From contig JBLKOM010000004.1 in assembly GCA_047602755.1 (NCBI GenBank), forward strand, positions 27,305-91,304: a stretch of DNA of 64,000 nt. Direction: 5' to 3'. Positions 25,584-61,634 of this stretch are shown here, piece by piece. The notes beneath the pieces were generated by a model. It did not search any database and had not been told where the DNA came from. It saw only the letters and a program-made list of their open reading frames with translations. Numbering within the stretch: position 1 is the first letter of the stretch; every line of letters begins with the position of its first letter. The translations under genes were made by a program, and so were the position numbers. The DNA is from Candidatus Woesearchaeota archaeon (GTDB lineage Archaea; Nanobdellota; Nanobdellia; Woesearchaeales; JACJVV01).

Positions 25584-28500
25584 TTAACTAATTACAATAT
25601 TAAATACTTCAGATCTAGCATTTCCACCTGCACCTAATGGTGATGCAAGTACAGTCATGTTGTATGTTCCAGGAATAGTTGGTGACCAACGTTGATTTCC
25701 AACAGTAATCCAACCTTGAGCAGAACCCGGATTTTCTCTTTGAAGTACCTTCCAATCATCAACAGTACCATCTGGTCTTCTTATTTCATAAGTAACACCA
25801 GCAAGTGCAATTAGTGAACTAACATTAACATCATAAGTTGTACCAGCTAATAAATTAATGGAATTTTTACTTCCTGATGAGAATACATCTTGATTACCAA
25901 CAGATACAGTATTAATAAAACTAGCAAAAGTATCAGTAGGAGTTGTCGTACCTGGAACAGAAGTATCAGTTGTAGAAGTACCTGCACAATTTATTCTAAT
26001 ACTAAATGTACGTTCTTGCGGTTGACCGCTATTACCCTCATGAATTTTATTACTAATACTATATACACCGTTATTTTCCTGTGAATCATACAATCTTAAA
26101 GTAATTCTCCAAACATTCTCAGGCTTACCATGACAAATATCTGATACAGCTGATGAAGCAGAAGATTGTGCTTTAACAATTACTTTACTTGTAGTATCAA
26201 TAGGAGTTCCTGGATCAATAGAAGGCCTTGTTGTTATATCAAAATTCTTTCCTTGATGTGAACATGTACAAGAAACTGAATTTGAATCAAAAATACAATC
26301 ATTTGTAGTCCCTTTAATTTTACATGCTTCACCATTTTCAATCTTAACAATATTAGCACTAACTTCTAAAATAAAATTATCACTTAACGAATTAAAATTA
26401 TGATTAGTACATGAAGTAATCCAACTTTCTTCTGGATCAACAGCACAACCAAAATTAGTTGTTGAAGCAGCTGTTACTAAATCTTGAGATAACTGAATAG
26501 GTGAAGGAGGCATACTATATGCAGTTTGACCATTAATTAAAACAGGTCTATAACTACCAACAGCTAATGGGTCACGAAGCATTGTGTTTGTATGCTCATC
26601 ATAAATTTCAATTGATAACCATTTAGTACTTGGACAACTTTCAGGAGAAGAACACTCAAGTGTATTTGGTAACACTTGATTAACAAATGCTGTTACACTT
26701 AAATAATCTCCAGGTCTCCAATAAGGTGAATTTATTTTAGGATCATCATGATTAGTTAATTCAGCATAATCTTCATGACCTATATCTAAAGAACAACGAT
26801 ATATTCCTTGTCCAACATCAAATTGACAGAATGCTGGTGCACCACCGCCAACTTCTCTTATATTACATGAAATATTACTTGTAACTCTCTCTCGATCTTT
26901 ATTTGTATAGGTATATTCAAGAACAACTTTATCATACCTAACCTCAGAATTAGTATCCATGATATCAGCTTCTTCTTCAAGAACATCGTAACGTTTCATA
27001 CCAGAAGATGCACCTCGTAAGTATACTTGTTTTGTTCTAACTCTATCTGCACAATCACATCTTTCATTACCATAACCATAATCACAATCCCATCCATCTG
27101 AACATACAAGTCTTAAATTATATGTAAGATCAGCACCTGCAACTAAACCTACTCCAAAATAATAGTTCCATGTTGCACGACCATTTGCTGAATTATATGA
27201 AATAAATCTTCTTTGACAAGGTGATAATAATCCTTGACTATCTACAGGAATATCACCAAATTCACCTTCAACCATTGCATTGAAATCAAAATCAAATGTT
27301 CCTGTAAATGCCCATAAACATAACGCATGTACCAGCTGACGCTCTGCAAACATGGCTCTAAAGAGTGAACTGCTACCATATCTTCCTGCAATACTTCTTT
27401 GAACATCACGGCCAGCTGAAGTTAATGCACCAAGAATATTACCAGGAGTACTATCGGTCCCTATTGTTCTTTGATGGCCTAAACTATATTTATTAGCTAC
27501 ACACTTTATTAAATCATAAATTAAATCACAAACATATCTTGTTAAAACTGCTCTACATATTCCTGGATTACCATCACCTGTTATCAAAATTGTTTCAAGA
27601 CAAGCTTTAACAGCAGTCATAATAGCTTTCCACAATTTCAAATAACCTGTAATACCTGGTAAACATAAACATTGAACACTTCTCAAAAATGATGATGAAG
27701 GATCAACTATTTTCTCTTTATCAGCTAATCCAAGTGCCGCTTGAATCTTAAGATAAATTTCTTGAGCTCTCCGATCATCTACTTCATATTCTTGGAAAAT
27801 CTTAGCAAATTCGGTTGATAATACTTCAGTATCATCAGAAATATTACAATCTCTTAAAAGAACATCATCAGTACAACCATCATGACCTGCAACTATTTGA
27901 CTAAAAGTAACACCATTTACTCTACCACTATTGTGACGATCATCTCGTAACTCTTCTTTAAGATCTCTTATTTGTCTATCCTTATTTGCTTGTTTATATG
28001 CTTGAAAATCTCTAACCAATGCTGATCTATCTGTTGCAGTCATTCTGCTTTGATCACCAGAACTTGCGCAATGATTCAAATCACGTTTAAACTCTGCAAA
28101 ACCAGTTGGATTAATGTAAGAATTAAATAATTGACTATCAGAATCAATAGTAGTGCCTTCTGGAACTTTGAAAACATCAACAGGTATTTCAGACAAAGGC
28201 CTAAATACTTTATTTGCAGCGACTGGAGAATCACCTTGACCATCTGTAAATAATAATGAATTCCAACCAACAACACTTGTATCTAGATCAATGTTTTGTA
28301 ATATTATTCCTCTATGAACAATAAATTCACCAGCAATATCAAAAGAAGTATCTTCTCCTGCAGCTGTTTGAACTCTTTTAGGAAGTACCCTATAAAAAAT
28401 ACCATGTTCGTCATGAGAACGCAAAGTCTGCGGACAATCACTATCAATATAAATTGTATGTGCCCCATCAAAATCTCCTGCATCTCTAGGGTGAATAGTA

Positions 28501-31500
28501 TTATGAACTGTCACAGTTGGATCAGCTCTTTGAGCACTAAGGAAATTGTATCTCTCAGCAAAAGTTGGAGCTGTTTGAGTAGTTGGAGTTTGTTCTACTC
28601 TAGTAAAATATCTTCCAGTTGATTCTGTTGCATAATTTAAACCTGTATCAACTATTTGCATATTACCAGCTGGATTTGCCTCACATATTCCAGCTAATGC
28701 ATTCCATGTTCGCCTTGCAGGTGAATTACATAATTTATCATAATCAACTGCACCTAAGAAATCATCACCGCTACCAATTAAATTACCTTCACCGCTATAT
28801 AATGGAATTATTCTACGCTCTTCTGTAACACCATTTACATCTACTTCTTCAGTACCAAATACAAAATCAGGAGTTGGAATAGTTATACCTGTTTCAGTTC
28901 TATGTAAAGTATCTTTTGCCATAAAGCTTGCAGCTACACAATAACTTTCTTCCATTTCATCAAATAAAAATCCATCTTGCAAGCCACAAACACTATCATA
29001 TTTCCTCATATATTCAACCACACAACAATTAGGATTAGGTGTACGTGGATCAAAACAACTAACTTTTTTAGTATCAAGTCCAGAAACACCTGGCAAATTT
29101 GATTCTGCAGGTGTACCAACGCCAAAATAAGGATTCTCAAATAAAACAGCGTCACGTCCTTCTTCTTTATATTTCTTCCATATCTGATACTGATATTGTA
29201 TAAACTCAATGCTTAATTCAATTCCTGCACAATCACTTCGTGATGTTAATGACAAACGATCAGTTGCACCATCAGGACCATCTAATTGTATATCTACAGA
29301 TTGTTGCCTTCCTCTATCACGTTGTGCATCTCTTACATATTTCATAAAACTAGGAGCTGAAGGACAAGCAATTCTATCACACAATAACTGCATCTTCTCT
29401 TCCCAATCCCAGAAATCCTTAGTAGCATTTGCACATTTAAGACAAGCTTCTAAACGAGGATTATCATCAATAGATAAGTCAAAAGCTCCTCCCTCTGATT
29501 CACGTTCAGCATAAACAAATTCACACAAACCTTGTTCAGCAACAATTGACTTAAAACCTGTCTGAGTAATTAAGTCTTTAATATTACCACCACCAAATTC
29601 ACAATTCCAACGTTTTTGAAACGCTTTAACATACATTACAACCCATGAACCCATACATGCATAAAGAGTATATTCTTTTATCTTATTTAATGGTTCAAGA
29701 AGATTATCAATTAATTGAATAGTATTATTTAGAAATTTAATAGCAGTACGCAAGAAGCTTTCAGGTATTACATTAGTATCAATTCTTCTATCAATTGCAA
29801 TCTCAAAATCAATACATTGTCTTTGTGTTATTTGTCCAGAAGATGTTGCAGTACTTCCAATAAGGTTATCTCTATTAGTTTGATATACAGGATCAGTGAA
29901 TCTTATTTCAATTTGAACTGGTAACCTTACACAACCAAATTGACTAATCATACATGATTTATTATTGGTCCAATCACTTCCTCGTCTATTATCAGAGATT
30001 TTTTGTTCTTTTTGTAAAAGTGTTTCAAAATCTTCTACTTCATCTTCTCTAACTGCTCTTTCTAAATCTCTTCGATAACGATTAGTATCTGTCGCACTTC
30101 TATCCAGAGCTTTAGATTGTATAACAACATAACCTTGTGTATTATTACTTCCTGGGACCATAAACACTCTTGGTGGGTCATTAAACCAACCAACATCCCA
30201 ATCAGCTTGATCTTCTCTTGAAATTCTTCTAAATCGAAAATTAATATTTGGTCTAGGAATTTCTTCATCAACAAAACTTCCTGTACCACCAAGCCATTCT
30301 AAATCAAAATTAAATGTAACTTGTGCAACACCCGTGAGTAAATGTCTAGGATTTAACATTGAAGGCATAGGGTTACTTAAATTGATTCCCCAATAACTAC
30401 CATAGCTACACATCCTATATTCAATATCATGCCTTTGTACCGTACTGTTTCTACCTACGGCATCAGTAGCCATAATTTCAACACGATTTCTAAATGCACC
30501 ATCATCTGCTATCCATGTTGAACGAGTTGTTTCAAAATCAACACCACCAGTTTGATAAGAATAATAATTTTGTCTATTTATTCCTTCAGCTCCTGGTTGA
30601 TCTAAAACAGAATATCCTGTAACTCTTCCTGTAATTTGATCTTGTGCTCTAGTAGTTTCAGTTGTTTCTTCAAAATTATATTTTCGTAGTTCAATTTCAA
30701 TACTAAAATTACCATTAGAATCGGTTCTACCAATAAATGTTGAATCATTATTTACTGTTACAGCAACAGTTGCAGGTTCATCGACATGTCCTCTTACTGT
30801 AACTTTATCATCATACGCAGGAGTTAAATCACGTAGATTATGCCATGTAATAGTTGGATCTTTTCTATCATAAATAGTTGTTCCAAATACTTCAACTTTA
30901 TTACCACCAGCATCAACAAACTCTAGCCTTATTCTATTACTACCTTCTTCTAAAGGAATTGATTGTCTAAAATCACCTTGATTAATTCGTATACTACGTA
31001 CAGGAGTATCAGAAGAACAACTATCTTCATATTCTACAGAAGTTGTACAATTTGTACCTGCAGGTGTCCTAACACTAACTGTATTAGAAAATGCTCCTTC
31101 ATCACAATTTTTATTAACTGCTGCAACTTGATATGTATAACTTGTTTCAGGCATGGTACAATCAGAAAAGGATGTTGAACGAGATGTCCCAATTGCTCTT
31201 GAATTTCTATATATTCTATAAAACTGTATATCCTCACTTCTATTATTAGCATCCCATCTTAATGAGACTGAATTAGAATTAACACTTTGATTAACTAAAT
31301 TCATCACCTGTGATGGAGGAGGAATTCCACCAATATAATCTGTCTCAACATAAATATTTAATGTAACATCTTTTGAAATAGTTCCATTAATAGGTAACGA
31401 AGCAACTAATGACAATGGAGGTATTTCACTCATCTCAACAATTGGTTTAGTTGCATCGACTTGCACAGTAAATTGTCTTTCTGCTGTATTACCTGAAAAA

Positions 31501-32633
31501 TCCATTGCTCTAATTAACACTTGATTTGTACTAACCAAATCAGGAAATCTAACTGAAGTTGAAAATTTACCATCAAGATCAGATTGAACAGCAAATTGTG
31601 GATTATTAAAATCATTTACAAATACAAAAACTCTTGTAAGAGGAGTTGTTGTTCCATTGATAGGCATAATATTAGCATTCCAATTACTAGGTAATGATAC
31701 ACTTAATGTTGGTGGACTATTACTTCCACCTGCCAAAAAAGAAAACTGAGAAGAATTTCGACAATTTTCATACTTATCACAAGATTGTACTATATATCGA
31801 TAAGTATTACCACCTTCTAATCTATTCAAAGTTACTGTATGATTTAATCGATATCCAGATGTACGAGCAGTCATATTTAATGAATGACGGCCATAATAAA
31901 CAGTTGAATCTGCTTCTTTATTAGTAGTCCAATGGATAAGAGTAGACGTATTACTCATCCCTATTGCTTTTATATTAAACAGATCTGGTGGGGTTAAATC
32001 TGGTTCAGGGATAGAAGCAATAATTCCATCTGAAGGTGGACCAATACTTCCAGTAACATCACTTGCAGCAATTGTATAAATATATGTTGCCAAAGGAGTT
32101 ATATTCTTTTCATCTTTAAAAGGAGATCTTGTAACATTTGCAATATTCTCACCATTTCTAAAAATCAAATAATTAGCTAAATCTGTAACCTCATTTCTAT
32201 CAAGTAAATCCCATTCTATTTCAACATAATCTAAAGTTGCATTTATTAATCGTGCACCTGTTATTTGAGGAGGAGGATTATCACTAGGAACAATAAAAGA
32301 ACCAATATATGTTTGACGCAATGGATTCAAAGAATGATTAGACCATGCTATTATTTGATAAGAATAAGATTCTCCTGAAATCAAACCTGTCAAATCCACT
32401 TTATGACGAGTATTAAATTGACTTTGAGACTTTTCATTATTATATCCTGTACGTGAAACATCCCACAAAAAAGAATAATTTGTATTTACAGACGTATTCC
32501 AAGAAATATCTACATTATTACGATCAATATTTACAACAGGTTGAGAAATAGTAAAAGCTGTAACAATAGGGAACAATATAATTAATTCTATACAAAATAA
32601 GGCAAATAATTTGTTAATTCCATCCATCGACAT
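25584..32633 (-). CDS. giant (2,349 aa) secreted/surface protein: N-terminal signal anchor, about four FN3-like modules, Ig-like region, large cysteine-rich core of unknown fold
   Basis: This is a single uninterrupted 7-kb ORF with non-repetitive protein-like composition. The N-terminal helix is LFALFCIELIILFPIVTAF. FN3/PAP-N-like modules have W...Y.Y signatures (e.g. VSLRWDANN...FYRIYRN...YTYQVAAVN). There are dozens of N-x-S/T sequons and many Cys. A Thr-rich linker (TSTTDTSVPGTTTPTDT) precedes a C-terminal beta-rich domain. Confidence 0.8.
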   Translation of the reverse strand: MSMDGINKLFALFCIELIILFPIVTAFTISQPVVNIDRNNVDISWNTSVNTNYSFLWDVSRTGYNNEKSQSQFNTRHKVDLTGLISGESYSYQIIAWSNHSLNPLRQTYIGSFIVPSDNPPPQITGARLINATLDYVEIEWDLLDRNEVTDLANYLIFRNGENIANVTRSPFKDEKNITPLATYIYTIAASDVTGSIGPPSDGIIASIPEPDLTPPDLFNIKAIGMSNTSTLIHWTTNKEADSTVYYGRHSLNMTARTSGYRLNHTVTLNRLEGGNTYRYIVQSCDKYENCRNSSQFSFLAGGSNSPPTLSVSLPSNWNANIMPINGTTTPLTRVFVFVNDFNNPQFAVQSDLDGKFSTSVRFPDLVSTNQVLIRAMDFSGNTAERQFTVQVDATKPIVEMSEIPPLSLVASLPINGTISKDVTLNIYVETDYIGGIPPPSQVMNLVNQSVNSNSVSLRWDANNRSEDIQFYRIYRNSRAIGTSRSTSFSDCTMPETSYTYQVAAVNKNCDEGAFSNTVSVRTPAGTNCTTSVEYEDSCSSDTPVRSIRINQGDFRQSIPLEEGSNRIRLEFVDAGGNKVEVFGTTIYDRKDPTITWHNLRDLTPAYDDKVTVRGHVDEPATVAVTVNNDSTFIGRTDSNGNFSIEIELRKYNFEETTETTRAQDQITGRVTGYSVLDQPGAEGINRQNYYSYQTGGVDFETTRSTWIADDGAFRNRVEIMATDAVGRNSTVQRHDIEYRMCSYGSYWGINLSNPMPSMLNPRHLLTGVAQVTFNFDLEWLGGTGSFVDEEIPRPNINFRFRRISREDQADWDVGWFNDPPRVFMVPGSNNTQGYVVIQSKALDRSATDTNRYRRDLERAVREDEVEDFETLLQKEQKISDNRRGSDWTNNKSCMISQFGCVRLPVQIEIRFTDPVYQTNRDNLIGSTATSSGQITQRQCIDFEIAIDRRIDTNVIPESFLRTAIKFLNNTIQLIDNLLEPLNKIKEYTLYACMGSWVVMYVKAFQKRWNCEFGGGNIKDLITQTGFKSIVAEQGLCEFVYAERESEGGAFDLSIDDNPRLEACLKCANATKDFWDWEEKMQLLCDRIACPSAPSFMKYVRDAQRDRGRQQSVDIQLDGPDGATDRLSLTSRSDCAGIELSIEFIQYQYQIWKKYKEEGRDAVLFENPYFGVGTPAESNLPGVSGLDTKKVSCFDPRTPNPNCCVVEYMRKYDSVCGLQDGFLFDEMEESYCVAASFMAKDTLHRTETGITIPTPDFVFGTEEVDVNGVTEERRIIPLYSGEGNLIGSGDDFLGAVDYDKLCNSPARRTWNALAGICEANPAGNMQIVDTGLNYATESTGRYFTRVEQTPTTQTAPTFAERYNFLSAQRADPTVTVHNTIHPRDAGDFDGAHTIYIDSDCPQTLRSHDEHGIFYRVLPKRVQTAAGEDTSFDIAGEFIVHRGIILQNIDLDTSVVGWNSLLFTDGQGDSPVAANKVFRPLSEIPVDVFKVPEGTTIDSDSQLFNSYINPTGFAEFKRDLNHCASSGDQSRMTATDRSALVRDFQAYKQANKDRQIRDLKEELRDDRHNSGRVNGVTFSQIVAGHDGCTDDVLLRDCNISDDTEVLSTEFAKIFQEYEVDDRRAQEIYLKIQAALGLADKEKIVDPSSSFLRSVQCLCLPGITGYLKLWKAIMTAVKACLETILITGDGNPGICRAVLTRYVCDLIYDLIKCVANKYSLGHQRTIGTDSTPGNILGALTSAGRDVQRSIAGRYGSSSLFRAMFAERQLVHALCLWAFTGTFDFDFNAMVEGEFGDIPVDSQGLLSPCQRRFISYNSANGRATWNYYFGVGLVAGADLTYNLRLVCSDGWDCDYGYGNERCDCADRVRTKQVYLRGASSGMKRYDVLEEEADIMDTNSEVRYDKVVLEYTYTNKDRERVTSNISCNIREVGGGAPAFCQFDVGQGIYRCSLDIGHEDYAELTNHDDPKINSPYWRPGDYLSVTAFVNQVLPNTLECSSPESCPSTKWLSIEIYDEHTNTMLRDPLAVGSYRPVLINGQTAYSMPPSPIQLSQDLVTAASTTNFGCAVDPEESWITSCTNHNFNSLSDNFILEVSANIVKIENGEACKIKGTTNDCIFDSNSVSCTCSHQGKNFDITTRPSIDPGTPIDTTSKVIVKAQSSASSAVSDICHGKPENVWRITLRLYDSQENNGVYSISNKIHEGNSGQPQERTFSIRINCAGTSTTDTSVPGTTTPTDTFASFINTVSVGNQDVFSSGSKNSINLLAGTTYDVNVSSLIALAGVTYEIRRPDGTVDDWKVLQRENPGSAQGWITVGNQRWSPTIPGTYNMTVLASPLGAGGNARSEVFNIVIS

Positions 32634-32718
32634 TATATCTATATCCTCTTTTTATATATGTTATGGATATTTTTAGTAAAAAACTAAACAATCCAATTAT
32701 TATTTCTAAATCAAACAA

Positions 32719-34761
32719 TTAATTAATCTTAGGTAATAATTCTGTTGAAGTAATATTATTAATTTGAGCTATAGTCAAAGCAGCATGTTCATCAAGAGTA
32801 CTAACTAATGCTTCAATAAAATGGAAAGTAACAGTATTTCCCATTATAAGATTTGCCCTACGAGGCATCCACACATCATAATATCCACCACCAAAATCTT
32901 CTCCTTCAGCCATATATGTTATTGAAAGATCAAAATCACCGTCTGCAACAGGCAATGATATTGTATTAGGCTGCCCAGGAAATATTATAAAATTATCTTC
33001 ATATAAAATATCATCAATATAACCTATTATATTTATGCTAACAGTTCCTGAAGTTACATCTTGTGCAGGACCATATTCACCATCAGCAGGATTAAGACGA
33101 TGTTTTCGAAGATTAACATTAAATTCTTTTAATCTAATCATCTCAACGTCTATAATATCTTCAATTTCATTTTCAACAACATGAATTCCATGCATGAAAC
33201 CTTCTTTTTCTGCCATTATAAAAGGATTTGAACATGCAGTAGTCAAAGGAGTATAAAGCAAAGCATCACCACCAATAGCATTAGTAACACCTAAAGGACA
33301 TTTTTTATTGACACATACCATTGATATATTCACATCTGATAATGCAACAGTTGAACCTTTTTCATAAGCACGTATAACTGCATTTCTACCAGGATTTTCC
33401 AAACAAAAAGTATCTAATGCAGGTCCTGTTGGATGAAAATCCATAAATTGCTTAGTACGCATTCCTTCATTATTTCGAATTATAACAGGAAAAGCATATC
33501 TAAATGTAAAACCTTGACCTGCTAAAGCATCAGGGTCATGAATTGTAACAACAACAGGATAATTTATATCATAAGCAAAATGATAAATATTTATACATAA
33601 GAAACTCAAATAACGTTGTAAACCTCTTATATTATTAGACTTTAAAACACCATTATGACTTGGTTTAGCCTGTATATCCATACCATAATCATAAAAATAA
33701 TTAAAATCAACACTAAAATTTTCATATTTTGGGTTAGTATCAAGCATTGGAACACGATAGTTAAAATAATAATAAGCATCAGGAGGTAAAGATTCTGAAG
33801 GGGGAGTTACTCTACCTGCAGCAGCCTCAACTGCAGCAAGAAAATCACCATCAGCATCAAAAACATCTAATAAAGAAGGTTCTTCATAAGCAGCACGTAA
33901 TGCATCAGCATATTCTGAATACAACCTATAAACTGAATCGTTAGCATAAAAAGGATAATAATCAGTACCCTCAACTCTAATTTCTGGTAATGTATGATAC
34001 AGACTATCTTGCAAACTACTTCTTATATCAGAGATATGCCATGTATCACTACCACATTTAAACTCCATACCTGATAATGGAATATCATCATTAATTGACA
34101 TTAAACCAATAGTTATATTCTCTAAAAAATAATATGTGTTTTCATAATGTAAAATATATTCTGCAAGATTAAACATATCTTTGAACCTAACATCATAAAT
34201 AGTAAAAAAATTATCAATACGAATTTGAATAGTATTATCAAGTGTTGATATCTCCATTGGATAAAAAATATTAACAGATACATCACGTTCATTAATATTA
34301 ACTTCAGTTCTAACATCACTTCTTATTCTTCGAACATGAAAACCTTGACGAGAAAAATCCGCCTGATTTATGCAATCCAGAAATTGTTCACCAACATAAT
34401 CTGATAATTGCTGCTCCATAAACTCAAATCTAGGTATATAATTCATATTATCATAATACCAATACGGAAGCATTTCTGCACCTCTACCAAAACTTAACCT
34501 TCGACCAGGATTAACCATAATATCCACTGGAATTTCTATATACCCCCCTTGCCTTCCTAAAAAAAATAAAGCATCAAGAGCGGCGTTAGTAGCACAAAAA
34601 TCTAAAAAAGCTTTAGCTGGTTGTAAAGCTGGAGGAACAACAATAACATCATCCACTCTCAAAGATGATGAACGCATAAAAAGAGTAACAACTAATATCA
34701 AAAGAAGAACTATACCTACCATTAAGAAAATCGAAATCTGTCCCCTCTTTTTTTTAAACAT
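32719..34761 (-). CDS. 680-aa extracytoplasmic protein with class III (type IV pilin/archaellin-like) signal peptide, unknown function
   Basis: The N-terminus MFKKKRG/QISIFLMVGIVLLLILVVTLF fits the basic-G/Q-hydrophobic pattern cleaved by archaeal prepilin peptidases. I recognise no family for the rest. It lies 85 nt upstream of the giant gene on the same strand. Confidence 0.7.
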   Translation of the reverse strand: MFKKKRGQISIFLMVGIVLLLILVVTLFMRSSSLRVDDVIVVPPALQPAKAFLDFCATNAALDALFFLGRQGGYIEIPVDIMVNPGRRLSFGRGAEMLPYWYYDNMNYIPRFEFMEQQLSDYVGEQFLDCINQADFSRQGFHVRRIRSDVRTEVNINERDVSVNIFYPMEISTLDNTIQIRIDNFFTIYDVRFKDMFNLAEYILHYENTYYFLENITIGLMSINDDIPLSGMEFKCGSDTWHISDIRSSLQDSLYHTLPEIRVEGTDYYPFYANDSVYRLYSEYADALRAAYEEPSLLDVFDADGDFLAAVEAAAGRVTPPSESLPPDAYYYFNYRVPMLDTNPKYENFSVDFNYFYDYGMDIQAKPSHNGVLKSNNIRGLQRYLSFLCINIYHFAYDINYPVVVTIHDPDALAGQGFTFRYAFPVIIRNNEGMRTKQFMDFHPTGPALDTFCLENPGRNAVIRAYEKGSTVALSDVNISMVCVNKKCPLGVTNAIGGDALLYTPLTTACSNPFIMAEKEGFMHGIHVVENEIEDIIDVEMIRLKEFNVNLRKHRLNPADGEYGPAQDVTSGTVSINIIGYIDDILYEDNFIIFPGQPNTISLPVADGDFDLSITYMAEGEDFGGGYYDVWMPRRANLIMGNTVTFHFIEALVSTLDEHAALTIAQINNITSTELLPKIN

Positions 34762-39359: not shown

Positions 39360-40850
39360 TTATATAATCAATTTTATACCTCTTATTGATACACGACAAT
39401 CTGAATCACCTTTAATTCCTAACCTTGTATGAAGTAATCCAGATGTTTTGATAGTACCGGGAAAAAATGTAACTGGCCATATTTGTGTATCCCAATCAGA
39501 ATATCCACTACAACTTTCATCCTCACCTGAACCACATTGCTCAACTTGAGGTAAAACTTGACCTAAGCAAGAACTCCAACTACTATCTGACTGACAAGTA
39601 TAAGTACCATTTATACAAATTCCTGTCCCTACTAAATCCTTATTCCCAGTATAACAAGGTGCAGTTTGACCTTGTGAATAAGTTAAACCATCATAATCAT
39701 TAAAACATTGAGCAATACAATTGTATGTCCCAGGTTGCCTTATATAACCTTCTCTACAACCCCACCGACAAGAATTAGTAACTTTATCATTACTATCTAC
39801 ATAAACCCATGCTTGATTAAGATTTGAAGGAGACCCAAAATTAATCCAACGAGAAGATGATGATGTTGGACCATCACTAGCACAGAAATTAGCAACACAA
39901 TCATTACCTACTCTTGTATATCCTGGCAAACAACCCCATCGACAATCTCCCTCTGGTTCTTGACTAGAACTTGGTTGCCATGATTGATCTATAGAAGTAG
40001 GAGAACCTTCATTAATCCATTTACCTGTCTGACTAGCAGGCCAAGATGAACTACATTTCCAGCAAGCACTTCCTGACACAGTTGAACCTGGTGCATTATC
40101 AATAATACCATCACAATCATTATCCCACCCATCACAAACTTCATCAGTTGCATAACACTCTACCTGAACAAAATTATAATTTATTACAGGCCAATGATGG
40201 TTATGAGAATCAGAAGCATAACCTATATGATGACCTAAAATTATATGAGGATTCTGAGTCGGTTGATTACAGCCTGTATATGTATTCTCAGATACAGAAA
40301 ACCAATCAGGACCAGCATGATTCATTCTATAAGATTGATTAAAAATTTCAAGATTATAACCATACCAATTCATATTATTCTGACCAAGACCTCTTTGATT
40401 AAATTGATTAGCCCATAAACCACCTGGATAAACTTGAATAAACAATTGATTATTAATACCAACATCTTGCCAAACTAATCCAACTAATTCACCACAAGGA
40501 CCATGAAAAACAAATCCAGCACCATTACCTCTAACATCAGAATATTGCATTGATACAGTAGCTTTAAGTCTATTTGACATTGGTAAAGGATTTACATTAT
40601 GCAATCTAGGAAACTTTTTTCCATAAGGTGCAGTTAATTCAACTACATCATAAGAATCATGTACAACAATACTGCCCTCACGAGGATCACTAACCCAATT
40701 ATTTAAGTCAAGAACTGGTGATGTAAAATCATCATAAAAAACAGTAACCCATCCTGCAGAAACATAAATTATACTTAATAATAAAATAAGAAAACTAATA
40801 ATAACAAACCTTTTTTTTATATAAATAAACCTATTTTTCATTTTAAACAT
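39360..40850 (-). CDS. secreted Cys-rich protein: ConA/LamG-like N-domain, MopE-like CDGxDNDCDG motif, duplicated CRWGC-containing modules
   Basis: 496 aa with a signal anchor. The DEVCDGWDNDCDGIIDN motif is present. Two related modules follow: KWINEGSPTSIDQSW...CRWGCLPGYTR and RWINFGSPSNLNQAW...CRWGCREGYIR. Further Cys-rich tail repeats occur. Confidence 0.65.
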   Translation of the reverse strand: MFKMKNRFIYIKKRFVIISFLILLLSIIYVSAGWVTVFYDDFTSPVLDLNNWVSDPREGSIVVHDSYDVVELTAPYGKKFPRLHNVNPLPMSNRLKATVSMQYSDVRGNGAGFVFHGPCGELVGLVWQDVGINNQLFIQVYPGGLWANQFNQRGLGQNNMNWYGYNLEIFNQSYRMNHAGPDWFSVSENTYTGCNQPTQNPHIILGHHIGYASDSHNHHWPVINYNFVQVECYATDEVCDGWDNDCDGIIDNAPGSTVSGSACWKCSSSWPASQTGKWINEGSPTSIDQSWQPSSSQEPEGDCRWGCLPGYTRVGNDCVANFCASDGPTSSSSRWINFGSPSNLNQAWVYVDSNDKVTNSCRWGCREGYIRQPGTYNCIAQCFNDYDGLTYSQGQTAPCYTGNKDLVGTGICINGTYTCQSDSSWSSCLGQVLPQVEQCGSGEDESCSGYSDWDTQIWPVTFFPGTIKTSGLLHTRLGIKGDSDCRVSIRGIKLII

Positions 40851-51856: not shown

Positions 51857-53041
51857 ATGAAAAAAACAATAATATCAAGTGGATTAGGTTTAATTATTAT
51901 ATCTGGAATAATGTCATTTTTAGGTTCAATTATAGGTTATAATATAAGTTATATTTCTAGGATTGTATTTATTATATTAAGTGCATTATACATTACTTTA
52001 GCATTATACAGAATAAATCATCCTTCTTCAAAAGAAATGGCTAAAAAACCAATGAGCTATAGAGTTGGTATTGCACTAGCTTATATCGTTCCTTTGATAG
52101 TTATTGGTCTTTTAATATATGTAAACTGGCTACCATTTGGTTATCAAAGAACATTTGTAATTGATGTTGGTAATTCTAATGATTTAGATGGTGTGTTTAG
52201 TATAGAAGAATTTGGTGTACGTGAAATGGTAGATGGAAAATATTTTCGCACATTAAATGGTGTTGCGTATGCTGTGTTTAAACCTAAAGTTGTATTAAAT
52301 AATGCTTCCTATACTGTTACTTTAGAAGGTACTAATGTTTCTTTTTTAAGTATGCCTTCAATAGACTTCGACTGGGATTATGACTGGACTGCTGACAATA
52401 TTTTAGATGATTTTATCGTAGTTGATAGCGAAGGCAATTCAAAAGAGTTAGTTGTTAAAGATGATTGTATTTATTTCGATGGTGATACTAGATTAGTCTT
52501 TCCAAATTCTTCTGATATGTTTGAAGAAGGACCTTTTGCAGTCTACGTAGAATGGGTGCCTGAGAAGGCTGAGAACAGACAACAGCTAATTGGACATTAC
52601 AACTGGGAAATTGAACAAAATGAAGATAATGTCAATTTCATGATTGGAAGATTAACAGAAAGCAATTCCAGACCTAACATAAGATTAAATATTGAAGAAA
52701 ATTTTTACAATCTATCATATAATTTATTAGCAATATACAATCCATCAGAAGATGGTTATTTTGAATTATACATTAATTATGAACATATAAACAGAAGAAA
52801 TATACAAAATGAAACTTTACGTCCAGACTACTCACAAGATTTAACAATTGGTAATACATTTCATAGTGGTGGAAGAGATGTATTTTTTGAAGGCTCAATT
52901 TGCAACATAAAATTCACATATATAGAACTAAAACCAAACATAACAACAATAACATTCAACTCAGACGACGAAGAAATAAGAATTCCAATTGTAGGAGAAC
53001 AAGGAAAATTAGATAAAATAAGACTTGAAGTAAGAAAATGA
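51857..53041 (+). CDS. membrane-anchored protein with LamG/ConA-like jelly-roll domain
   Basis: 394 aa with three N-terminal TM segments. The extracytoplasmic region has a LamG-like pattern (FAVYVEWVPEKAENRQQLIGHYNWEI...NVNFMIGR). Confidence 0.45.
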   Translation: MKKTIISSGLGLIIISGIMSFLGSIIGYNISYISRIVFIILSALYITLALYRINHPSSKEMAKKPMSYRVGIALAYIVPLIVIGLLIYVNWLPFGYQRTFVIDVGNSNDLDGVFSIEEFGVREMVDGKYFRTLNGVAYAVFKPKVVLNNASYTVTLEGTNVSFLSMPSIDFDWDYDWTADNILDDFIVVDSEGNSKELVVKDDCIYFDGDTRLVFPNSSDMFEEGPFAVYVEWVPEKAENRQQLIGHYNWEIEQNEDNVNFMIGRLTESNSRPNIRLNIEENFYNLSYNLLAIYNPSEDGYFELYINYEHINRRNIQNETLRPDYSQDLTIGNTFHSGGRDVFFEGSICNIKFTYIELKPNITTITFNSDDEEIRIPIVGEQGKLDKIRLEVRK

Positions 53042-53685
53042 CTTCTTTTATTGAAAAATACAATACAATATTTTCAGATACTTCAAGGAATGTATTCATA
53101 TTAAGTATTTTATTATTTATTCTAGAATATTTATCACCTATAAGAATTAGTTTTTACATAAATATGAATTTATTAACATTCATATTAATCTTTACAGGAT
53201 TTGCTTGGTTATTTTTTACAATACAAAATAATCAAGAAAAATATAAAAAACTAGAACCATATTTTAAATATGGATTTTTAATATTTCTTTTAATTATAAC
53301 AATAGGTTCATTAAGATTTGAATTTCTAAATAATATTGAGATAATTAAACTAATAATCAATACAATAAATAATTATACATATATCATAACATTAATAACA
53401 ATAGGTTTTGGTTTTCTAACATTTTACTTTAACAGAGAAAGAGTTGAAAAAGAAATAGAAGAAGAAAAAGATGCAGAGGAAAAAGCAGAACAAAAAAGAG
53501 CAGAAGAATTTGACAGTAAATTCCCAACACTTTCAAAATTTAATTTAAATTATCAAATAATAGAAAACTGGAAACAAAAACAATATTTATTTTTCATAAT
53601 ATCAATATTAATAAGTCCATTGGTTTTTATTATAAGACTTCCATATTCAATTATTAACTGGATTTATAAGGAGTGGGAATTATGA
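53038..53685 (+). CDS. hypothetical membrane protein with acidic coiled-coil segment
   Basis: 215 aa. It overlaps the upstream gene by 4 nt. Confidence 0.4.
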   Translation: MTSFIEKYNTIFSDTSRNVFILSILLFILEYLSPIRISFYINMNLLTFILIFTGFAWLFFTIQNNQEKYKKLEPYFKYGFLIFLLIITIGSLRFEFLNNIEIIKLIINTINNYTYIITLITIGFGFLTFYFNRERVEKEIEEEKDAEEKAEQKRAEEFDSKFPTLSKFNLNYQIIENWKQKQYLFFIISILISPLVFIIRLPYSIINWIYKEWEL

Positions 53686-54911
53686 AAAAAAAGCCAACAA
53701 TTACCTATATAGTGCCTTGTTCAAAAAAAAGATTTTTTATTCATGAGGAAAGAATTAATCCTTTTTTATCTGAATTTAATTTTAATATAGTTGTCTTTGA
53801 TAAAGAAATAAAAAAATTAAAAATAATTAAAGAAAAAAATAAAAGCTATTATATTTATCCTTTAAAAAAAACATATCTTAATCCGCCTCTTTCTACTTTA
53901 ATAGGAATAAAAACATGCACTATAATGAATAAATTTGAGAAAGAAACAGATATTTTTCATATCGCTGGTGTTGATTTAATAACAGGAGCAGGAATGTATA
54001 AATTATCTGGAGGAAAAAAACCAGTTTTAGCAAGATTAAATTCTTATGGCTTATTAAGTCCAGATTATTCATTATTTTATAATAATAAACTTTATTTAAA
54101 ATCAAGTTTTAAAATAAGACTTAATAAAATAAATTCAAAAATAAATAATCCTTTATTAAAAATATTATCACCGATTTATGCATTATATTTCCAATTTGAC
54201 AAAATGTATTGGATGAGATATATAGAAAAATTTCATGCAATTGATAAATCTGTTAAAGAATATTATTCTTCATTTAATAATCATCAAATAAAAGTACCAG
54301 TAAATAAAATACAAGTAATCCCTAATTTTATAGATAGAGAATTTATTAAGAAATCTAAAATAAATATAAAAAAAGATAAAAAATTCACGTTCATTTATAT
54401 TGGAAGAATAACAGAGAATAAAGGAATTAAAATATTAGTAAAAGCATTTTCTGAAGAATTTAAAAACACAAAAAACATTCAACTTAAGATAATAGGAGAT
54501 GGTGATCTAAAAAAATATGTTTTAAAAAATAAAACAGATAATATTTCATTTGAAAATTTTATAGACCATAATAATATATATAAAGAATATAAAAAAGCAA
54601 ATGTTTTCATTCATCCAACATTAAATCCTGAACCTTTTGGAAGAACTATTTTAGAAGCATTATATTGTGACTTACCAGTAATATGTACAGATATAGGTGC
54701 ACCACCAAATATTGTAGGAAAAGCAGGGATAAAAATTAAAATAAATTCTGTAAAAAGTCTTAAAAAATCATTAAAAAATATTTATGAAAATAAAAAATTA
54801 TACAATACACTAAGAAATAATTGCAAAAAAGAAAGAGAAAAATACTCACAAGAGAAATCAGATAAAATGTTAAGTAAATTATATAAGGAGATTATTTATG
54901 GAAAAATATAA
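53673..54911 (+). CDS. glycosyltransferase family 4 (GT-B)
   Basis: 412 aa. The C-terminal block NVFIHPTLNPEPFGRTILEALYCDLPVICTDIGAPPNIV matches the E(x)7E-type GT4 motif. Confidence 0.8.
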   Translation: MGIMKKKPTITYIVPCSKKRFFIHEERINPFLSEFNFNIVVFDKEIKKLKIIKEKNKSYYIYPLKKTYLNPPLSTLIGIKTCTIMNKFEKETDIFHIAGVDLITGAGMYKLSGGKKPVLARLNSYGLLSPDYSLFYNNKLYLKSSFKIRLNKINSKINNPLLKILSPIYALYFQFDKMYWMRYIEKFHAIDKSVKEYYSSFNNHQIKVPVNKIQVIPNFIDREFIKKSKINIKKDKKFTFIYIGRITENKGIKILVKAFSEEFKNTKNIQLKIIGDGDLKKYVLKNKTDNISFENFIDHNNIYKEYKKANVFIHPTLNPEPFGRTILEALYCDLPVICTDIGAPPNIVGKAGIKIKINSVKSLKKSLKNIYENKKLYNTLRNNCKKEREKYSQEKSDKMLSKLYKEIIYGKI

Positions 54912-56475
54912 AGAAACTATAATCTGGAGCATAGTAATTTTAAGCATATTCATAGGTGTTTTAATTAGATTCCCAAATAATTTTCCTATTCAAACAGGAC
55001 ATCATACATTTGATGTAGCACAACAAATATTGGAAACAGGAACTCCTCAATTAAAATCAGAGATTATCTATTTTAGAGCAATAGGATATACATATACATT
55101 AGCAGGTTTTTTTTATATTTTAGGAGTTTCTGATTTTACAACTAAGTTTGTAGGATTTTTGTTTGGAGTAGGAAGTATTTTTCTAATCTACTTATTTACA
55201 AAAAAGATTTCAAATAAAAAAGCTGCAATAATAGCGACAATTCTTATGTCATTATCTCCATGGGCAGTAAGATACAGTGCTGAAAGATGGTACTCTTTTT
55301 ATATTTTCTTTTTTCTTTTAACACTTTATTTATATTATAATTGCTTAATTACAAAAGACAACATAAGAAAAAGATATTTTATAATCTTACCTGTTATTTT
55401 TTATATCACAATTAATACAACAATTACAGGTACTTTTATTATGTTTTTATTTCCATTGATATATGTATTTAATTACAAAAATAATTCATTAAAAATAAAA
55501 TCTATATTAAATTATATCTTAAAAAACAAGGATAAGATAATATTAACATTTTTATTATTTTTAGTCTTTATATTACATTATTTTATTATGCCTCAAAGAA
55601 TCCTTCCAGAATTTATATCTCCTGAAGAATATTTTGGGAGTCCTAATTTGACTAAATTTAGTATAACAAATATTAATTTTTCTTTTGTTGAAGAAATATT
55701 TAAAATTTATCCTATCGAATCAATATTAATATTCATCTTTTTAATAGCAATACTATTTACAAATCTTAAATATAAGAAAGAGTCTTTACCATTCTATCTT
55801 TTATTTTTAATGTTTATAGTTACTATTATAATGGAGGTAGGGAAATCATTTCAACCAAGATATCTTTTTTGGCTCATACCTATTTTTTATATTTGTTTAA
55901 GTATTATTTTGAATTATATTTGCAAAATCATTAAGAATATTAAGATTAAGTCTATTTTTTTAATAATACTTATGATATATATAATTAATCCTTTGGACTT
56001 ATATCATGTCAATTCATTAGATAAATGCAATGTTAATATAAAAGACTGGTACTTATACTCAACTTCAATGAAATTTACTTATGATTCTAGAACTCCTGTT
56101 GAATATGTTTTAGAAAGATTTAATCCAGAAACAGATTTGATAATCCTCGGAACATCAGGATATGGAAGTTACATTAACAAAGAAATTAATAGTCGCTATG
56201 CTAAAGATATAGCTCCTAGAAGACATGCAGAAGGATCTAGAATCGCTTTTTATGAGGGAGATTATAGGCTAACATATACTGGAGCTTCAATATTATTTCA
56301 CGATGATTTAGAAAAATTTAATATTCTATTAAATTCATATCCTAGAATTTGGTTATTAGATAGTTATACAACACCCTTAAATAGATATCCCATTTATGAA
56401 ATAATAGAAAATAATTTTAAACAAGTCTATATTGGTTGCAATGTAGGTTCAGGGGTATTATTATATGAAAGATGA
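54898..56475 (+). CDS. polytopic membrane protein, candidate GT-C (ArnT/PMT-like) glycosyltransferase
   Basis: 525 aa and about 12 TM. Its size and topology, together with its position in the glycosylation cluster, suggest GT-C. The sequence motifs are weak. Confidence 0.5.
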   Translation: MEKYKETIIWSIVILSIFIGVLIRFPNNFPIQTGHHTFDVAQQILETGTPQLKSEIIYFRAIGYTYTLAGFFYILGVSDFTTKFVGFLFGVGSIFLIYLFTKKISNKKAAIIATILMSLSPWAVRYSAERWYSFYIFFFLLTLYLYYNCLITKDNIRKRYFIILPVIFYITINTTITGTFIMFLFPLIYVFNYKNNSLKIKSILNYILKNKDKIILTFLLFLVFILHYFIMPQRILPEFISPEEYFGSPNLTKFSITNINFSFVEEIFKIYPIESILIFIFLIAILFTNLKYKKESLPFYLLFLMFIVTIIMEVGKSFQPRYLFWLIPIFYICLSIILNYICKIIKNIKIKSIFLIILMIYIINPLDLYHVNSLDKCNVNIKDWYLYSTSMKFTYDSRTPVEYVLERFNPETDLIILGTSGYGSYINKEINSRYAKDIAPRRHAEGSRIAFYEGDYRLTYTGASILFHDDLEKFNILLNSYPRIWLLDSYTTPLNRYPIYEIIENNFKQVYIGCNVGSGVLLYER

Positions 56476-57874
56476 AACAAATACATTCTTAAAAAAAGGT
56501 TTTTCTGCTTCATTTTTAAGCTTTATAATAAAATATTTTCTTTTCCTTATAGCAATCCCTTTCATTGCAAGAATTTCGAATGAAGAAACAATAGGTAATT
56601 TTGGACTTTATAAATCTATTATTTTTTTTGGAGGTTTTGTTTTATTATTAGGTTTAAACGAAGGAATTAAAAAATATATCTCTAGTTTAAAGAATGATAA
56701 TATTGAAATTAATAATATACTATCATATTATTTAATAATAATAGGTTTTTTAACATTAATTATATCCATAATATTTTATTCTAAATCAGAATATTTATTA
56801 TTATTTCTAACAATAGCAGTTTTTTTTGCAGGAATATTCAATTTAATTAGAGCAATATTATTTAATACTAAAAACGAATACTTTAGCGAATTAGTAAAAA
56901 ATATTTATCATATTTTAATTTTTTTAATAGGGATACCTTTAATTTTTATTTTAAAAGATAATAGAAGTTTAGCATATGGTGTTATCTTTTCAACTATTAT
57001 AACTGGACTTATTTTGAGTGTTTGGTTCTTTATAAATAAAGTAAAATTAAAAATAAATCAAAAATTTTATCAAAATAAAAAATTTATCAAAATCTTTTTA
57101 TATTCTAAAAAATCATTTTTATCAATTAGTCTTACAACTTATTTAATGGATATATTATTAATAATTTATGCGTTTTTTTTAAGTATAGGAGAACTTGGTC
57201 TTTTAAAAATATCTATTTCCATAATATCTATTACTTTATTGTTCCCTAATATAACTAACCAAATATTAATCCCTCTTTTCTCAAAAACTAACATCAAAAA
57301 AAAAAGAGAAAAATTTTTTGTTTTTTTATTACACCATTTATTAATACTTATTTCATTGATGATCATAGCTCTAAGTTTTTTTTCAAAAGAAATAATAACA
57401 ATTTATGTAGGAAAAGATTACTTTCAATCTATAGTTTATCTTATTTATCTTTCCCCATCATTCTTACTATTTCCACTTATAAGATTAATTCAAACATATC
57501 ATCAATATAATGAAAAATTTAAATTAATATTAAAGAGTCAATTTATAGGGATTATTATATTTTTAATTTTATCTTTTTTATTTTTTAAAATAAAAAAAGA
57601 AATGATATTCCTAGGTCTATTTATTATGCTAGTTTATCTTTTTTTAACGTATTATCTAAATCTAAATAAAGCAATTAAGAAAGAATTTATAAACAAAAAA
57701 ACCTATTTAATCTTTATAATCTCTATAATATATTCTTTATTGGGGTTTTTTATTTCAAATACAAATTTATTTTTTAGAATAATATTATTTATCTCATTTA
57801 TCTTATTTATACTTATTAATTTACAAAAAAAAGATATTAAAAAAATATATTTGCTTTTAAATAAATCTAAGTAA
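56465..57874 (+). CDS. polysaccharide/oligosaccharide flippase (Wzx/MOP superfamily)-like membrane protein
   Basis: 469 aa and about 12-14 TM. This is the typical flippase size and context. Confidence 0.6.
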   Translation: MKDETNTFLKKGFSASFLSFIIKYFLFLIAIPFIARISNEETIGNFGLYKSIIFFGGFVLLLGLNEGIKKYISSLKNDNIEINNILSYYLIIIGFLTLIISIIFYSKSEYLLLFLTIAVFFAGIFNLIRAILFNTKNEYFSELVKNIYHILIFLIGIPLIFILKDNRSLAYGVIFSTIITGLILSVWFFINKVKLKINQKFYQNKKFIKIFLYSKKSFLSISLTTYLMDILLIIYAFFLSIGELGLLKISISIISITLLFPNITNQILIPLFSKTNIKKKREKFFVFLLHHLLILISLMIIALSFFSKEIITIYVGKDYFQSIVYLIYLSPSFLLFPLIRLIQTYHQYNEKFKLILKSQFIGIIIFLILSFLFFKIKKEMIFLGLFIMLVYLFLTYYLNLNKAIKKEFINKKTYLIFIISIIYSLLGFFISNTNLFFRIILFISFILFILINLQKKDIKKIYLLLNKSK

Positions 57875-58958: not shown

Positions 58959-58959
58959 T

Positions 58960-60225: not shown

Positions 60226-60282
60226 AAAACTTTATTTCAATAAACATAAGTTTATTAGTGATTTCTTGATTAACATTTCATT

Positions 60283-61573: not shown

Positions 61574-61634
61574 ATTCTTATAAGCATTTATAAATGTTTA
61601 GTGACGATAAGTTAATTATCATTCGCTATAAGAA

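Follow-up and report, generated by a model that had tools for sequence, protein, structure and literature searches.

What does a pair of very large adjacent genes, for which no function has been assigned, do for a small-genome archaeon? The two genes, here called A and B, together occupy 9,178 nt, or 14%, of the 64,000-nt stretch of DNA that was analyzed (the window). We hold with moderate confidence that they encode a two-component extracellular contact module of Woesearchaeota-/Pacearchaeota-type DPANN archaea, with A tethering B. The two products probably make up an apparatus on the cell surface with which other cells are gripped or attacked.

25584..32633, minus strand: gene B, secreted giant, 2,349 aa (open reading frame and translation)
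32634..32718, minus strand: A-B spacer, 85 nt (sequence read)
32719..34761, minus strand: gene A, 680 aa (open reading frame and translation); product a predicted membrane-tethered ectoprotein, partner of giant B (homologues and AlphaFold2)

Conservation of the gene pair

A and B are genuine genes, chance open reading frames being impossible at 27% GC; the reading frames, coordinates, 85-nt gap and 14% share given in the initial annotation were all reproduced on the minus strand. Searches returned 25 homologues for A and, in species genomes, 123 A relatives; for the B core there are 548 cluster representatives, none of which has an assigned name. The A homologues are labelled Woesearchaeota, Nanoarchaeota or Nanobdellota, in keeping with the small-genome archaeon suggested earlier. 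The source organism is a Woesearchaeota-type DPANN archaeon with a small genome, and the origin of the A-B module is not viral.

Pairing of A with a giant is near-obligate. Among the 93 A-family genes whose loci include at least 1.5 kb of downstream sequence, 90 have as the next gene on the same strand one for a B-type protein or a large relative of it. These partners are B (62 loci), c4 (21 loci) and c10 (7 loci), which profile comparison shows to be related (hhalign 98.4% and 95.3%). Neighborhood conservation had been proposed as a check on the initial annotation, and it is stronger than could have been known from the sequence of one locus. The median gap between A and its partner in relatives is 0 to -4 nt, versus 85 nt in the window, and the genes flanking the pair vary from locus to locus. 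Many genomes contain two or three paralogous A-giant pairs, and B-family proteins range from 1,300 to 3,300 aa with variable C-termini. In the window, the spacer has a T6 run, a TATA-like CATATATAAAAAG and, 5' of the B ATG, GAGGA. Two observations count against the module: near-universal pairing and conservation would fit a structural envelope role, e.g., an S-layer, as well, and in the window the A-B interval has candidate signals for a separate promoter and a terminator.

Architecture of proteins A and B

Protein A is divided as follows.

34741..34761, minus strand: A aa 1-7, MFKKKRG, charged class III leader (family motif)
34669..34740, minus strand: A aa 8-31, hydrophobic helix, membrane anchor or pilin-like alpha-1 (Kyte-Doolittle, AlphaFold2)
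33472..34632, minus strand: A aa 44-430, alpha/beta ectodomain region (confident AlphaFold2 model)
32812..33387, minus strand: A aa 459-650, tandem beta-sandwiches (AlphaFold2 strands, Foldseek)

The N-terminus of A, MFKKKRG/QISIFLMVGIVLLLIL, fits the archaeal class III (prepilin-type) signal that had been recognized there (K-R-G/Q-I-S-x-F), with cleavage predicted after G7. Of 105 complete family members, 93 retain the pattern [KR][GAS]/Q[IV][ST]xF, and residues Q8, F12 and G16 reach a conservation of at least 90% in the family alignment. In the public annotation, A is called as P0001 (667 aa), which begins at M14 and thereby loses the signal motif; the family alignment supports the 680-aa start. 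A has one hydrophobic segment only (aa 5-36, Kyte-Doolittle), with a helix modelled at aa 5-31. The AlphaFold2 model (pLDDT 84.2) consists of this membrane helix, the alpha/beta region and the C-terminal beta-sandwiches. All eight Cys of A are conserved, among them those at A residues 56, 130, 236 and 389 in the alpha/beta region, which has no recognizable fold and is spanned by no Foldseek match to PDB or BFVD. The beta-sandwiches are modelled as the transthyretin, CarboxypepD_reg or PEGA kind, with weak Foldseek matches to pilin/adhesin Ig-like and CPD-regulatory-like domains. A has no match in Pfam and, as noted initially, could be placed in no family.

Protein B is divided as follows.

32556..32633, minus strand: B aa 1-26, Sec-type signal peptide (sole hydrophobic segment of B)
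30474..32555, minus strand: B aa 27-720, FN3, PAP-N and Ig-like stalk (Pfam)
28644..30446, minus strand: B aa 730-1330, conserved core block 1 (tblastn, conserved in most loci)
27828..28643, minus strand: B aa 1331-1602, poorly conserved linker between core blocks (pairwise BLAST boundaries)
26604..27827, minus strand: B aa 1603-2010, core block 2, the family signature (conservation)
27489..27707, minus strand: B aa 1643-1715, amphipathic helical segment (DPxxSxxRSxQCxCLPGI...TGDG...YVCD...C)
25584..26603, minus strand: B aa 2011-2349 and stop codon, variable C-terminal end (conservation)

The signal peptide of B shares an h/c-region motif, P-[VI]-[YF]-[TS]-A, with other B and c4 family members, and its cleavage is predicted after V-T-A (residue 26). 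No second hydrophobic segment follows the signal, and B therefore has no C-terminal anchor. Pfam matches in the N-terminal part are Pur_ac_phosph_N (225-299), fn3 (442-521), Glucodextran_B (546-582) and a weak Big_13 (328-393); stalk length differs between homologues. Core block 1 contains an invariant C-D-R-I-x-C-P-S-A-P-S motif (aa 1085-1095), and block 2 is the best-conserved stretch in all 150 representatives listed, at 67-71% identity to the nearest relatives versus 45% for the stalk. Against the nearest genome (L008), identity is 45% in the stalk, 46% in block 1, 67% in block 2 and 29% at the C-terminal end, which is conserved in that genome only. This end contains stretches rich in beta structure, a linker rich in Thr (~2203-2222) and a terminal domain of ~125 aa. 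The helical segment with its CLPGI motif is the only part of B that recurs in the paralogous c4 and c10 giants, and nowhere is mature B more hydrophobic (19-residue Kyte-Doolittle maximum 1.29). Of its six conserved Cys (1655, 1657, 1678, 1693, 1702 and 1711), five are invariant and C1657 is present in at least 90%. B has 55 Cys (54 in the mature protein), 36 of them within aa 1101-2200, and many are invariant across the family. The AlphaFold2 model of the core has a pLDDT of 27.

The initial description of B as a protein with an N-terminal signal, an FN3/PAP-N/Ig N-terminal part, a Cys-rich core with a helical segment (aa ~1650-1716), a Thr-rich linker, a small end domain and no C-terminal membrane anchor is borne out, and internal DNA repeats were again not found. 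Its "very frequent" N-x-S/T sequons did not hold up: B overall is at compositional expectation (27 observed versus 25.0 +/- 4.5 expected, z = 0.45). Sequons are unevenly distributed: they are enriched in the stalk (17 versus 11.7 in aa 27-720), number 23 versus ~14.6 expected in aa 37-1100 and are scarce in aa 1101-2200 of the core (2 versus 8.1, z = -2.4). Pfam, PDB sequence and profile searches and Foldseek were uninformative in assigning either protein to a characterized family. None of the outcomes that had been named as fatal to the initial annotation, from full-length homology to a known S-layer or adhesin class to genes that never co-occur, was encountered.

Function of the pair

As parts of a contact module, A would be exported by its class III signal and kept on the cell by its N-terminal hydrophobic helix, cleaved or not, with ~650 residues outside the cell (the novel alpha/beta region, then the beta-sandwich domains). 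B would be exported via Sec and lose its signal peptide and, having no anchor of its own, would most likely be retained on the cell by A. It may be pictured as a long modular arm made of a sequon-rich, possibly glycosylated FN3/Ig stalk, a core probably stabilized by disulfides, and a fast-evolving C-terminal end that would touch the target. The conserved Cys of A and B fit the expectation for extracellular proteins.

In some relatives, SLT, VanY or Amidase_2 domains occupy the position of the variable C-terminal end of B. These include P0092 (SLT and VanY), P0084 (Amidase_2, E = 3e-21), P0166 (SLT) and the c10 giants L083, L079 and L080 (SLT, with additional DUF2272 and GDSL in L080); L076 and L028 have SLT-like regions. 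Because these C-termini are peptidoglycan hydrolases, the module would generally serve to touch the envelope of another cell and, in some lineages, to breach it. The hydrolase domains independently support the host contact proposed initially. They are frequent in the divergent c10 subfamily and scarce in B proper, where about 215 members were inspected and 4 carry them, and Pfam finds no enzyme domain, SLT or other, in the B of the window. A host-attack role is therefore one that we infer for this protein, whose C-terminal end would be non-enzymatic and probably an adhesin.

The module would instead be structural, and not dedicated to host contact, if A and B formed a two-component S-layer or envelope lattice with B as outer glycoprotein and A as membrane stalk, which we judge unlikely. 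The model for such a lattice is SlaA/SlaB of Sulfolobales, in which a large anchorless secreted glycoprotein is likewise encoded beside a membrane-anchored partner thought to hold it (eLife 2024, PMC10903991). The A-B pair is widespread in its lineage, the stalk of B is rich in Ser, Thr, Asn and sequons, its sequon-poor core could serve as lattice contact, and no other obvious S-layer gene was recognized within the window. However, neither protein has sequence or fold similarity to SlaA/SlaB or any other solved S-layer protein, and B differs from SlaA in its unusually high content of conserved Cys, in the great variation of the giants in length and at their C-termini, and in its enzyme-bearing relatives. 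The anchor of A is N-terminal and of class III type, whereas that of SlaB is a C-terminal transmembrane helix. The two or three paralogous pairs per genome also argue against a lattice, as do the lytic domains, which archaeal S-layer proteins are not known to carry.

We consider it quite improbable that a prepilin peptidase cleaves A and that A then serves as a minor or tip pilin in a type IV pilus-like fiber with B at its tip. The class III motif is conserved with a nearly invariant Q at +1, and a role as adhesins or minor pilins has been proposed for large class-III-signal proteins near archaeal pilus loci, which often have conserved cysteines, but class III signals also occur on surface proteins that form no filament, for example those of the Sulfolobus bindosome (PMC4858521). 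Neither the window nor 87 related loci (~1.2 Mb in total) show a gene for a pilus ATPase, TadC/FlaJ-type platform protein, prepilin peptidase or small pilin in linkage with the pair, so the fiber display suggested initially has no contextual support. A is also far larger than known archaeal pilins, and its modelled helix is broken at aa 32-43 rather than forming a long pilin alpha-1 packed on a sheet (AlphaFold2).

A released, soluble, bacteriocin-like lytic or membrane-active toxin, with A as export, maturation or immunity partner, is highly improbable, given that most B-family members (including the B of the window) have no enzyme domain, that the long FN3/Ig stalk of B is typical of cell-attached proteins, and that A is a large ectoprotein with adhesin-like beta-sandwiches, unlike small immunity proteins. 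In its favor are the anchorless B, the SLT, Amidase_2, VanY and GDSL domains of relatives, conserved amphipathic Cys-stapled helices that could be membrane-active, and documented killing of bacteria by archaeal peptidoglycan hydrolases, prominent in Nanoarchaeota (PMC12352652). From the initial interpretation, host contact and the class III signal are retained, and pilus display and high sequon frequency are not.

Comparison with known systems

Archaeal class III signal proteins include pilins, minor pilins or putative tip adhesins, and bindosome substrate-binding proteins (Makarova et al. 2016, PMC4858521). A resembles them in having [KR][GA], then Q, then a hydrophobic helix, and it resembles the large members with conserved cysteines that are predicted adhesins (PMC4858521). 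It is unlike them in its conserved Phe, not Glu, at +5, its 680-aa length (several times that of structural pilins), its unmatched ectodomain fold and its lack of linkage to pilus-assembly genes.

B is, like the SPEARE proteins of Nanohaloarchaeota, a giant secreted DPANN protein with a proposed role in host contact. SPEARE proteins were reportedly put forward by Hamm et al. 2019 as mediators of such contact, and are said to be defined by serine-protease, adhesion and restriction-endonuclease domains. By Pfam, B has none of these domains, and it has no detectable homology to SPEARE proteins.

Extracellular lytic-transglycosylase-domain proteins of up to 3,000 aa have been recorded in Woesearchaeota and Pacearchaeota as fam00969 (2021, PMC8204110), and a "large lytic murein transglycosylase" was named in the same lineages (Vigneron et al. 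2022, PMC9723730). Compared by description, the B giants and fam00969 very probably belong to the same superfamily. They occur in the same lineages, reach the same size (up to ~3,000 aa) and are predicted to be extracellular, and SLT domains of just this kind lie C-terminally in homologues of B (c10 and a few B-proper members). The B of the window differs in having no SLT or other enzyme domain, and the published family is defined by its SLT domain. The giant that the initial annotation could not place is in no characterized family but is not wholly unrecorded. Large transglycosylase-bearing proteins of these lineages were already known, whereas in the literature consulted neither the A partner nor the paired architecture was found described; its accounts of SLT giants mention no conserved Cys-rich core, obligate class-III-signal partner or duplicated A-plus-giant pairs. 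The proposed role is the same for both, in that the large lytic-transglycosylase proteins are proposed to attach to bacterial cell walls (PMC8204110; PMC9723730) and the A-B module would attach to the wall of another cell.

Gene pair and genomic surroundings

The two co-directional ORFs described in the initial annotation, gene A (a 680-aa protein with a class III signal) and gene B (a 2,349-aa Cys-rich giant), were recovered by ORF search and translation on the minus strand, separated by 85 nt, and both have many homologues. ORFs of such length cannot arise by chance in the 27% GC DNA of the window. Features discussed here are as follows.

25584-32633, minus: gene B, 2,349 aa
32719-34761, minus: gene A, 680 aa
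37598-38791, minus: bacterial-type sigma-70 gene with regions 1.2, 2, 3 and 4, four genes upstream of A
39360-40850, minus: secreted Cys-rich protein of 496 aa in which Cys-containing modules are repeated and a MopE-like motif, CDGWDNDCDG, occurs; an unannotated candidate surface protein
3334-3439, minus: tRNA gene, 106 nt
51857-63765: island of glycan-biosynthesis genes, among them several glycosyltransferases (GT1, GT2 and GT4), PMT_2-like and Polysacc_synt flippase-like genes and UDP-glucose dehydrogenase

No tandem or dispersed repeats were found across the region, in agreement with the initial annotation. In the public gene call P0001, A starts at M14 and is 667 aa long, losing window 34723-34761 (minus strand) and with it the K-R-G/Q motif; the family alignment, in which this motif is conserved, supports the longer start. 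Gene B is locally G+C-richer (33-34% at window 26000-32000 versus about 25-30% elsewhere in the window), which is probably better explained by its amino-acid composition (Gly, Asp, Arg, Cys) than by foreign origin, the latter being less likely because the gene is vertically conserved. A viral or mobile origin of the module was rejected, as no relatives were found in IMG/VR or GenBank phages.

The source as a small-genome DPANN archaeon is upheld by an archaeal Hel308-type helicase domain encoded in the window, by the long tRNA gene, which was detected by Rfam (45 bits) and missed by ARAGORN, and by the named homologues of A and B, all from Woesearchaeota, Nanoarchaeota or Nanobdellota. The length of the tRNA gene suggests an intron, and tRNA introns are common in archaea. 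A bacterial origin, prompted by the adjacent sigma-70 gene, was rejected in view of the Hel308 domain, the DPANN-named homologues and the fact that sigma-70 genes of bacterial type are already documented in Woesearchaeota (PMC8204110).

Pairing and gene order in related genomes

At least 123 relatives of A were found in species-representative genomes, all of them DPANN archaea. A full-length B query was swamped by FN3 matches and was replaced by the genomic context of A homologues plus a core-only alignment. An exhaustive search with a single query sequence, B aa 790-1989, returned 548 cluster representatives (273 at E <= 1e-30), nearly all 1,300-3,300 aa long and named in databases only as "hypothetical" or "FN3 domain-containing", with core block 2 always the best-conserved stretch.

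Downstream DNA of 1.5 kb or more was available for 93 A-family genes, and in 90 of these the next gene on the same strand encodes a B, c4 or c10 protein (median gap 0 to -4 nt), confirming that the pair is conserved as neighbours. The partner is a B-family giant in 62 cases, a c4 protein of ~1,000-1,160 aa in 21 and a c10 giant of 1,700-2,500 aa in seven; the patterns used to scan the related loci were strict and such counts are lower bounds. Flanking genes vary between loci, and the pair itself is therefore the conserved unit. Profile comparison related B to c4 with 98.4% probability and to c10 with 95.3% probability over block 2, and the motif DPxxS..S...CLPGI...L..W is common to all three. 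The similarity of the c10 proteins (L076, L077, L079, L080, L083, L085) to B is confined to the helical, Cys-rich portion of block 2, and these proteins are preceded by distant A homologues.

In about 25-30 genomes, the pair sits within a larger co-directional array, A'-c4-c3-c2-A-B-c2, in which a second A paralogue (A') is followed by its own ~1,000-aa partner c4, c3 is a secreted protein of 600-1,200 aa, and c2 is a membrane protein of ~280 aa found on both sides. The array was observed in L004, L010, L012, L017, L023-L025, L027, L029, L030 and L034, and further in L039, L045, L046, L048, L049, L057, L065, L066, L072, L075 and L082. Pfam provided no annotation for c2, c3 or c4, and an HMM search of the window found none of c2, c3, c4 and c10. 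Metagenome contigs very often end within the giant gene (L001, L002, L003, L005, L007, L011, L015, L016, L020, L023, L025 and L026, among others), which suggests strain-level variation or assembly difficulty.

Architecture of proteins A and B

The N-terminus of A, MFKKKRG/QISIFLMVGIVLLLILVVTLFM (MFKKKRG/QISIFLMVG...), matches the FlaFind-type class III pattern, in which a basic leader ending in [KR][GA] is followed by a small residue or Q and then by a hydrophobic run of 14 or more residues. The class III signal assigned initially is thus borne out, and the motif is kept in 93/105 complete A-family ORFs from 87 loci; no non-A ORF in the ~1.2 Mb that these loci span was found to carry it. Among 22 aligned homologues, which share 22-54% identity with A, conservation reaches at least 90% at Q8, F12 and G16; position -1 holds G, A or S, and all eight cysteines are conserved. 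Such conservation of the motif would not be expected of a generic signal anchor.

Protein A has no relatives in Pfam, or in the PDB by sequence and profile searches. An AlphaFold2 model built from the 22-sequence alignment (pLDDT 84.2) predicts the following elements.

aa 5-31: membrane helix
aa 32-43: low-confidence break
aa 44-70: helix, followed by alpha/beta elements
aa 44-430: alpha/beta region
aa 459-650: beta-sandwich domains

Foldseek searches of the PDB and BFVD with this model matched the beta-sandwiches alone, at TM-scores <=0.18, to Ig-like pilin or adhesin domains and to transthyretin, CPD-regulatory or PEGA-like domains, and gave no recognisable fold match for the N-terminal 400 residues. 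The matches to teneurin, SpaA, SpaC and TIE reflect Ig-like or CPD-regulatory-like domains and do not indicate homology. A pilin fold consists of a single long N-terminal helix that packs on an antiparallel beta-sheet; in the model, the helix at 5-31 is followed by the low-confidence residues 32-43, and no type IV pilin was matched.

The sole hydrophobic segment of B is its N-terminal signal. Pfam identified fn3 (E = 8.7e-10), Pur_ac_phosph_N (E = 1.8e-7) and Glucodextran_B (E = 1e-10) within the first ~650 residues and no domains beyond, so that the FN3, PAP-N and Ig-like modules read initially from the N-terminal part stand; these stalk-type domains recur in 9 to 17 of 21 family members. The remaining parts were delimited by comparison with the homologous giants that adjoin A homologues.

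aa ~730-1330: core block 1
between the core blocks: variable linker
aa ~1603-2010: core block 2
aa 2011-2349: poorly conserved C-terminal region

The mature protein contains 54 of the 55 cysteines, many of them invariant. Six lie within ~57 residues of amphipathic helix (aa 1655-1711), the helical Cys-rich segment singled out in the initial annotation, which is also the most hydrophobic part of mature B. As to heme or metal motifs, B contains no CxxCH and a single CxxC. N-x-S/T sequons, initially described as very frequent, occur at chance level overall, with an excess in the stalk and a deficit in the core. The glycan-biosynthesis island may be a source of surface glycans, including those on the sequon-rich stalk. 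Sequence and profile searches found no PDB relatives of B, and AlphaFold2 applied to aa 790-1989 with a two-sequence alignment gave an unusable model (mean pLDDT 27.1).

A Pfam scan of 21 diverse B-family members with single-protein follow-up placed peptidoglycan hydrolase domains C-terminal to the core in some relatives.

Peptidoglycan hydrolase domains in relatives of B (protein or locus; family; domains)
P0092; B proper; SLT + VanY
P0084; B proper; Amidase_2 (E = 3e-21)
P0166; B proper; SLT
L083; c10; SLT (E = 2e-18)
L079; c10; SLT
L080; c10; SLT + DUF2272 + GDSL (GDSL/SGNH hydrolase)
L076; c10; added by iterative searches
L028; B proper; added by iterative searches

Such domains were present in 4/7 c10 proteins versus about 4/215 of B proper, and Pfam detected neither SLT nor any other peptidoglycan hydrolase domain in the window's B. 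A T7-lysozyme query gave no match for Amidase_2, which was located by Pfam, and a 3D/MltA-like domain considered in P0064 received no support from Pfam. Attachment to bacterial walls has been proposed for large extracellular lytic-transglycosylase proteins (PMC8204110; PMC9723730), and bacteria-killing archaeal peptidoglycan hydrolases are prominent in Nanoarchaeota (PMC12352652).

Proposed role and comparison with known systems

The pair is near-obligate, and both products are predicted to be exported, A with an N-terminal hydrophobic helix and B without an anchor; B has a polarity running from stalk to core to variable end, with enzyme payloads at that end in relatives. We propose that A is cut by a prepilin-type peptidase, stays tethered via its helix and would hold B on the cell surface, where the core of B would be stabilised by disulfides and its C-terminus may contact a partner cell. 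We judge the chances of this whole proposal to be evenly balanced. That A and B instead form an envelope lattice of the SlaA/SlaB kind is unlikely; the pairing and its ubiquity fit a lattice, while the cysteines, the paralogous pairs and the enzyme ends do not. True display at a pilus tip is more doubtful still. It would fit the signal of A, but the pilus-like fibre suggested initially finds no contextual support: across the 87 loci and the window, the recurrent neighbours of the pair are c2, c3 and c4, which lack Pfam matches, or housekeeping genes, and they include no pilus ATPase, TadC/FlaJ platform or prepilin peptidase. None of these three was found among the window ORFs either, with no Peptidase_A24-type ORF (prepilin peptidase PibD, FlaK or EppA) among those of at least 100 aa in the 64-kb window. 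The least probable of these readings is an antibacterial toxin that is released and has A as helper.

A bolder reading, which we regard as a long shot, is that the A-plus-giant pairs (A-B, A'-c4, A-c10) are structural subunits of a Woesearchaeales organelle dedicated to host attachment and penetration. The Cys-stapled amphipathic helical hairpin, conserved in all the giants, would then act as a novel membrane-active element, opening or bridging the envelope of the partner, and host specificity would be determined by the variable C-terminus, which in some lineages would also cut peptidoglycan. An organelle of this kind would correspond to the cone-and-filament "attachment organelle" observed by cryo-ET in Nanobdellota, the component proteins of which are still unknown (PMC11420986).

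The module, its function being inferential, is relevant to the way in which DPANN archaea make contact with other cells. These archaea constitute a large share of archaeal diversity, and most are thought to be attached to other cells. To our knowledge, hardly any proteins involved in this contact have been identified, and no culture of Woesearchaeota is well studied. The pair offers a concrete, lineage-wide candidate, often duplicated and taking as much as about 1% of a genome of ~1 Mb, with a clear topology of tethered partner and anchorless giant and a variable end that carries bacterial cell-wall hydrolases in some relatives. If it is a contact apparatus, the type of host (bacterial or archaeal) may be predictable from genomes, the proteins would be antibody or labelling targets for finding hosts in enrichments, and structural work would gain a new conserved Cys-rich domain family. 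If it proves to be the S-layer, it would give this large group its first identified envelope protein.

In the literature searched, we found no description of the A family or its conserved class III-type N-terminus, of the near-obligate A-plus-giant pairing, of its duplication into paralogous pairs, or of the conserved core, rich in Cys, and the helical signature that it carries. SPEARE of Nanohaloarchaeota reportedly combines serine protease, adhesion and restriction-endonuclease domains in one giant protein, whereas Pfam detected no protease or endonuclease domain in B. The pair resembles SlaA/SlaB in that a large anchorless secreted protein adjoins a membrane-anchored partner, although the anchor here is N-terminal and no known S-layer homologue was found by PDB sequence and profile searches (A and B) or by Foldseek (A model only), whose PDB matches were generic beta-sandwiches at TM-scores <=0.15. 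A further likeness is to fam00969, the published large extracellular lytic-transglycosylase-domain proteins of Woesearchaeota and Pacearchaeota (PMC8204110): these are extracellular and reach ~3,000 aa, while B has 2,349 aa and a signal peptide, with homologues of 1,300-3,300 aa named Woesearchaeota. The defining SLT/GH23 domain is absent from the window's B and present in P0092, P0166, L083, L079 and L080. B is best seen, fam00969 being compared by description, as an enzyme-less member or variant of a giant extracellular superfamily known in these lineages.
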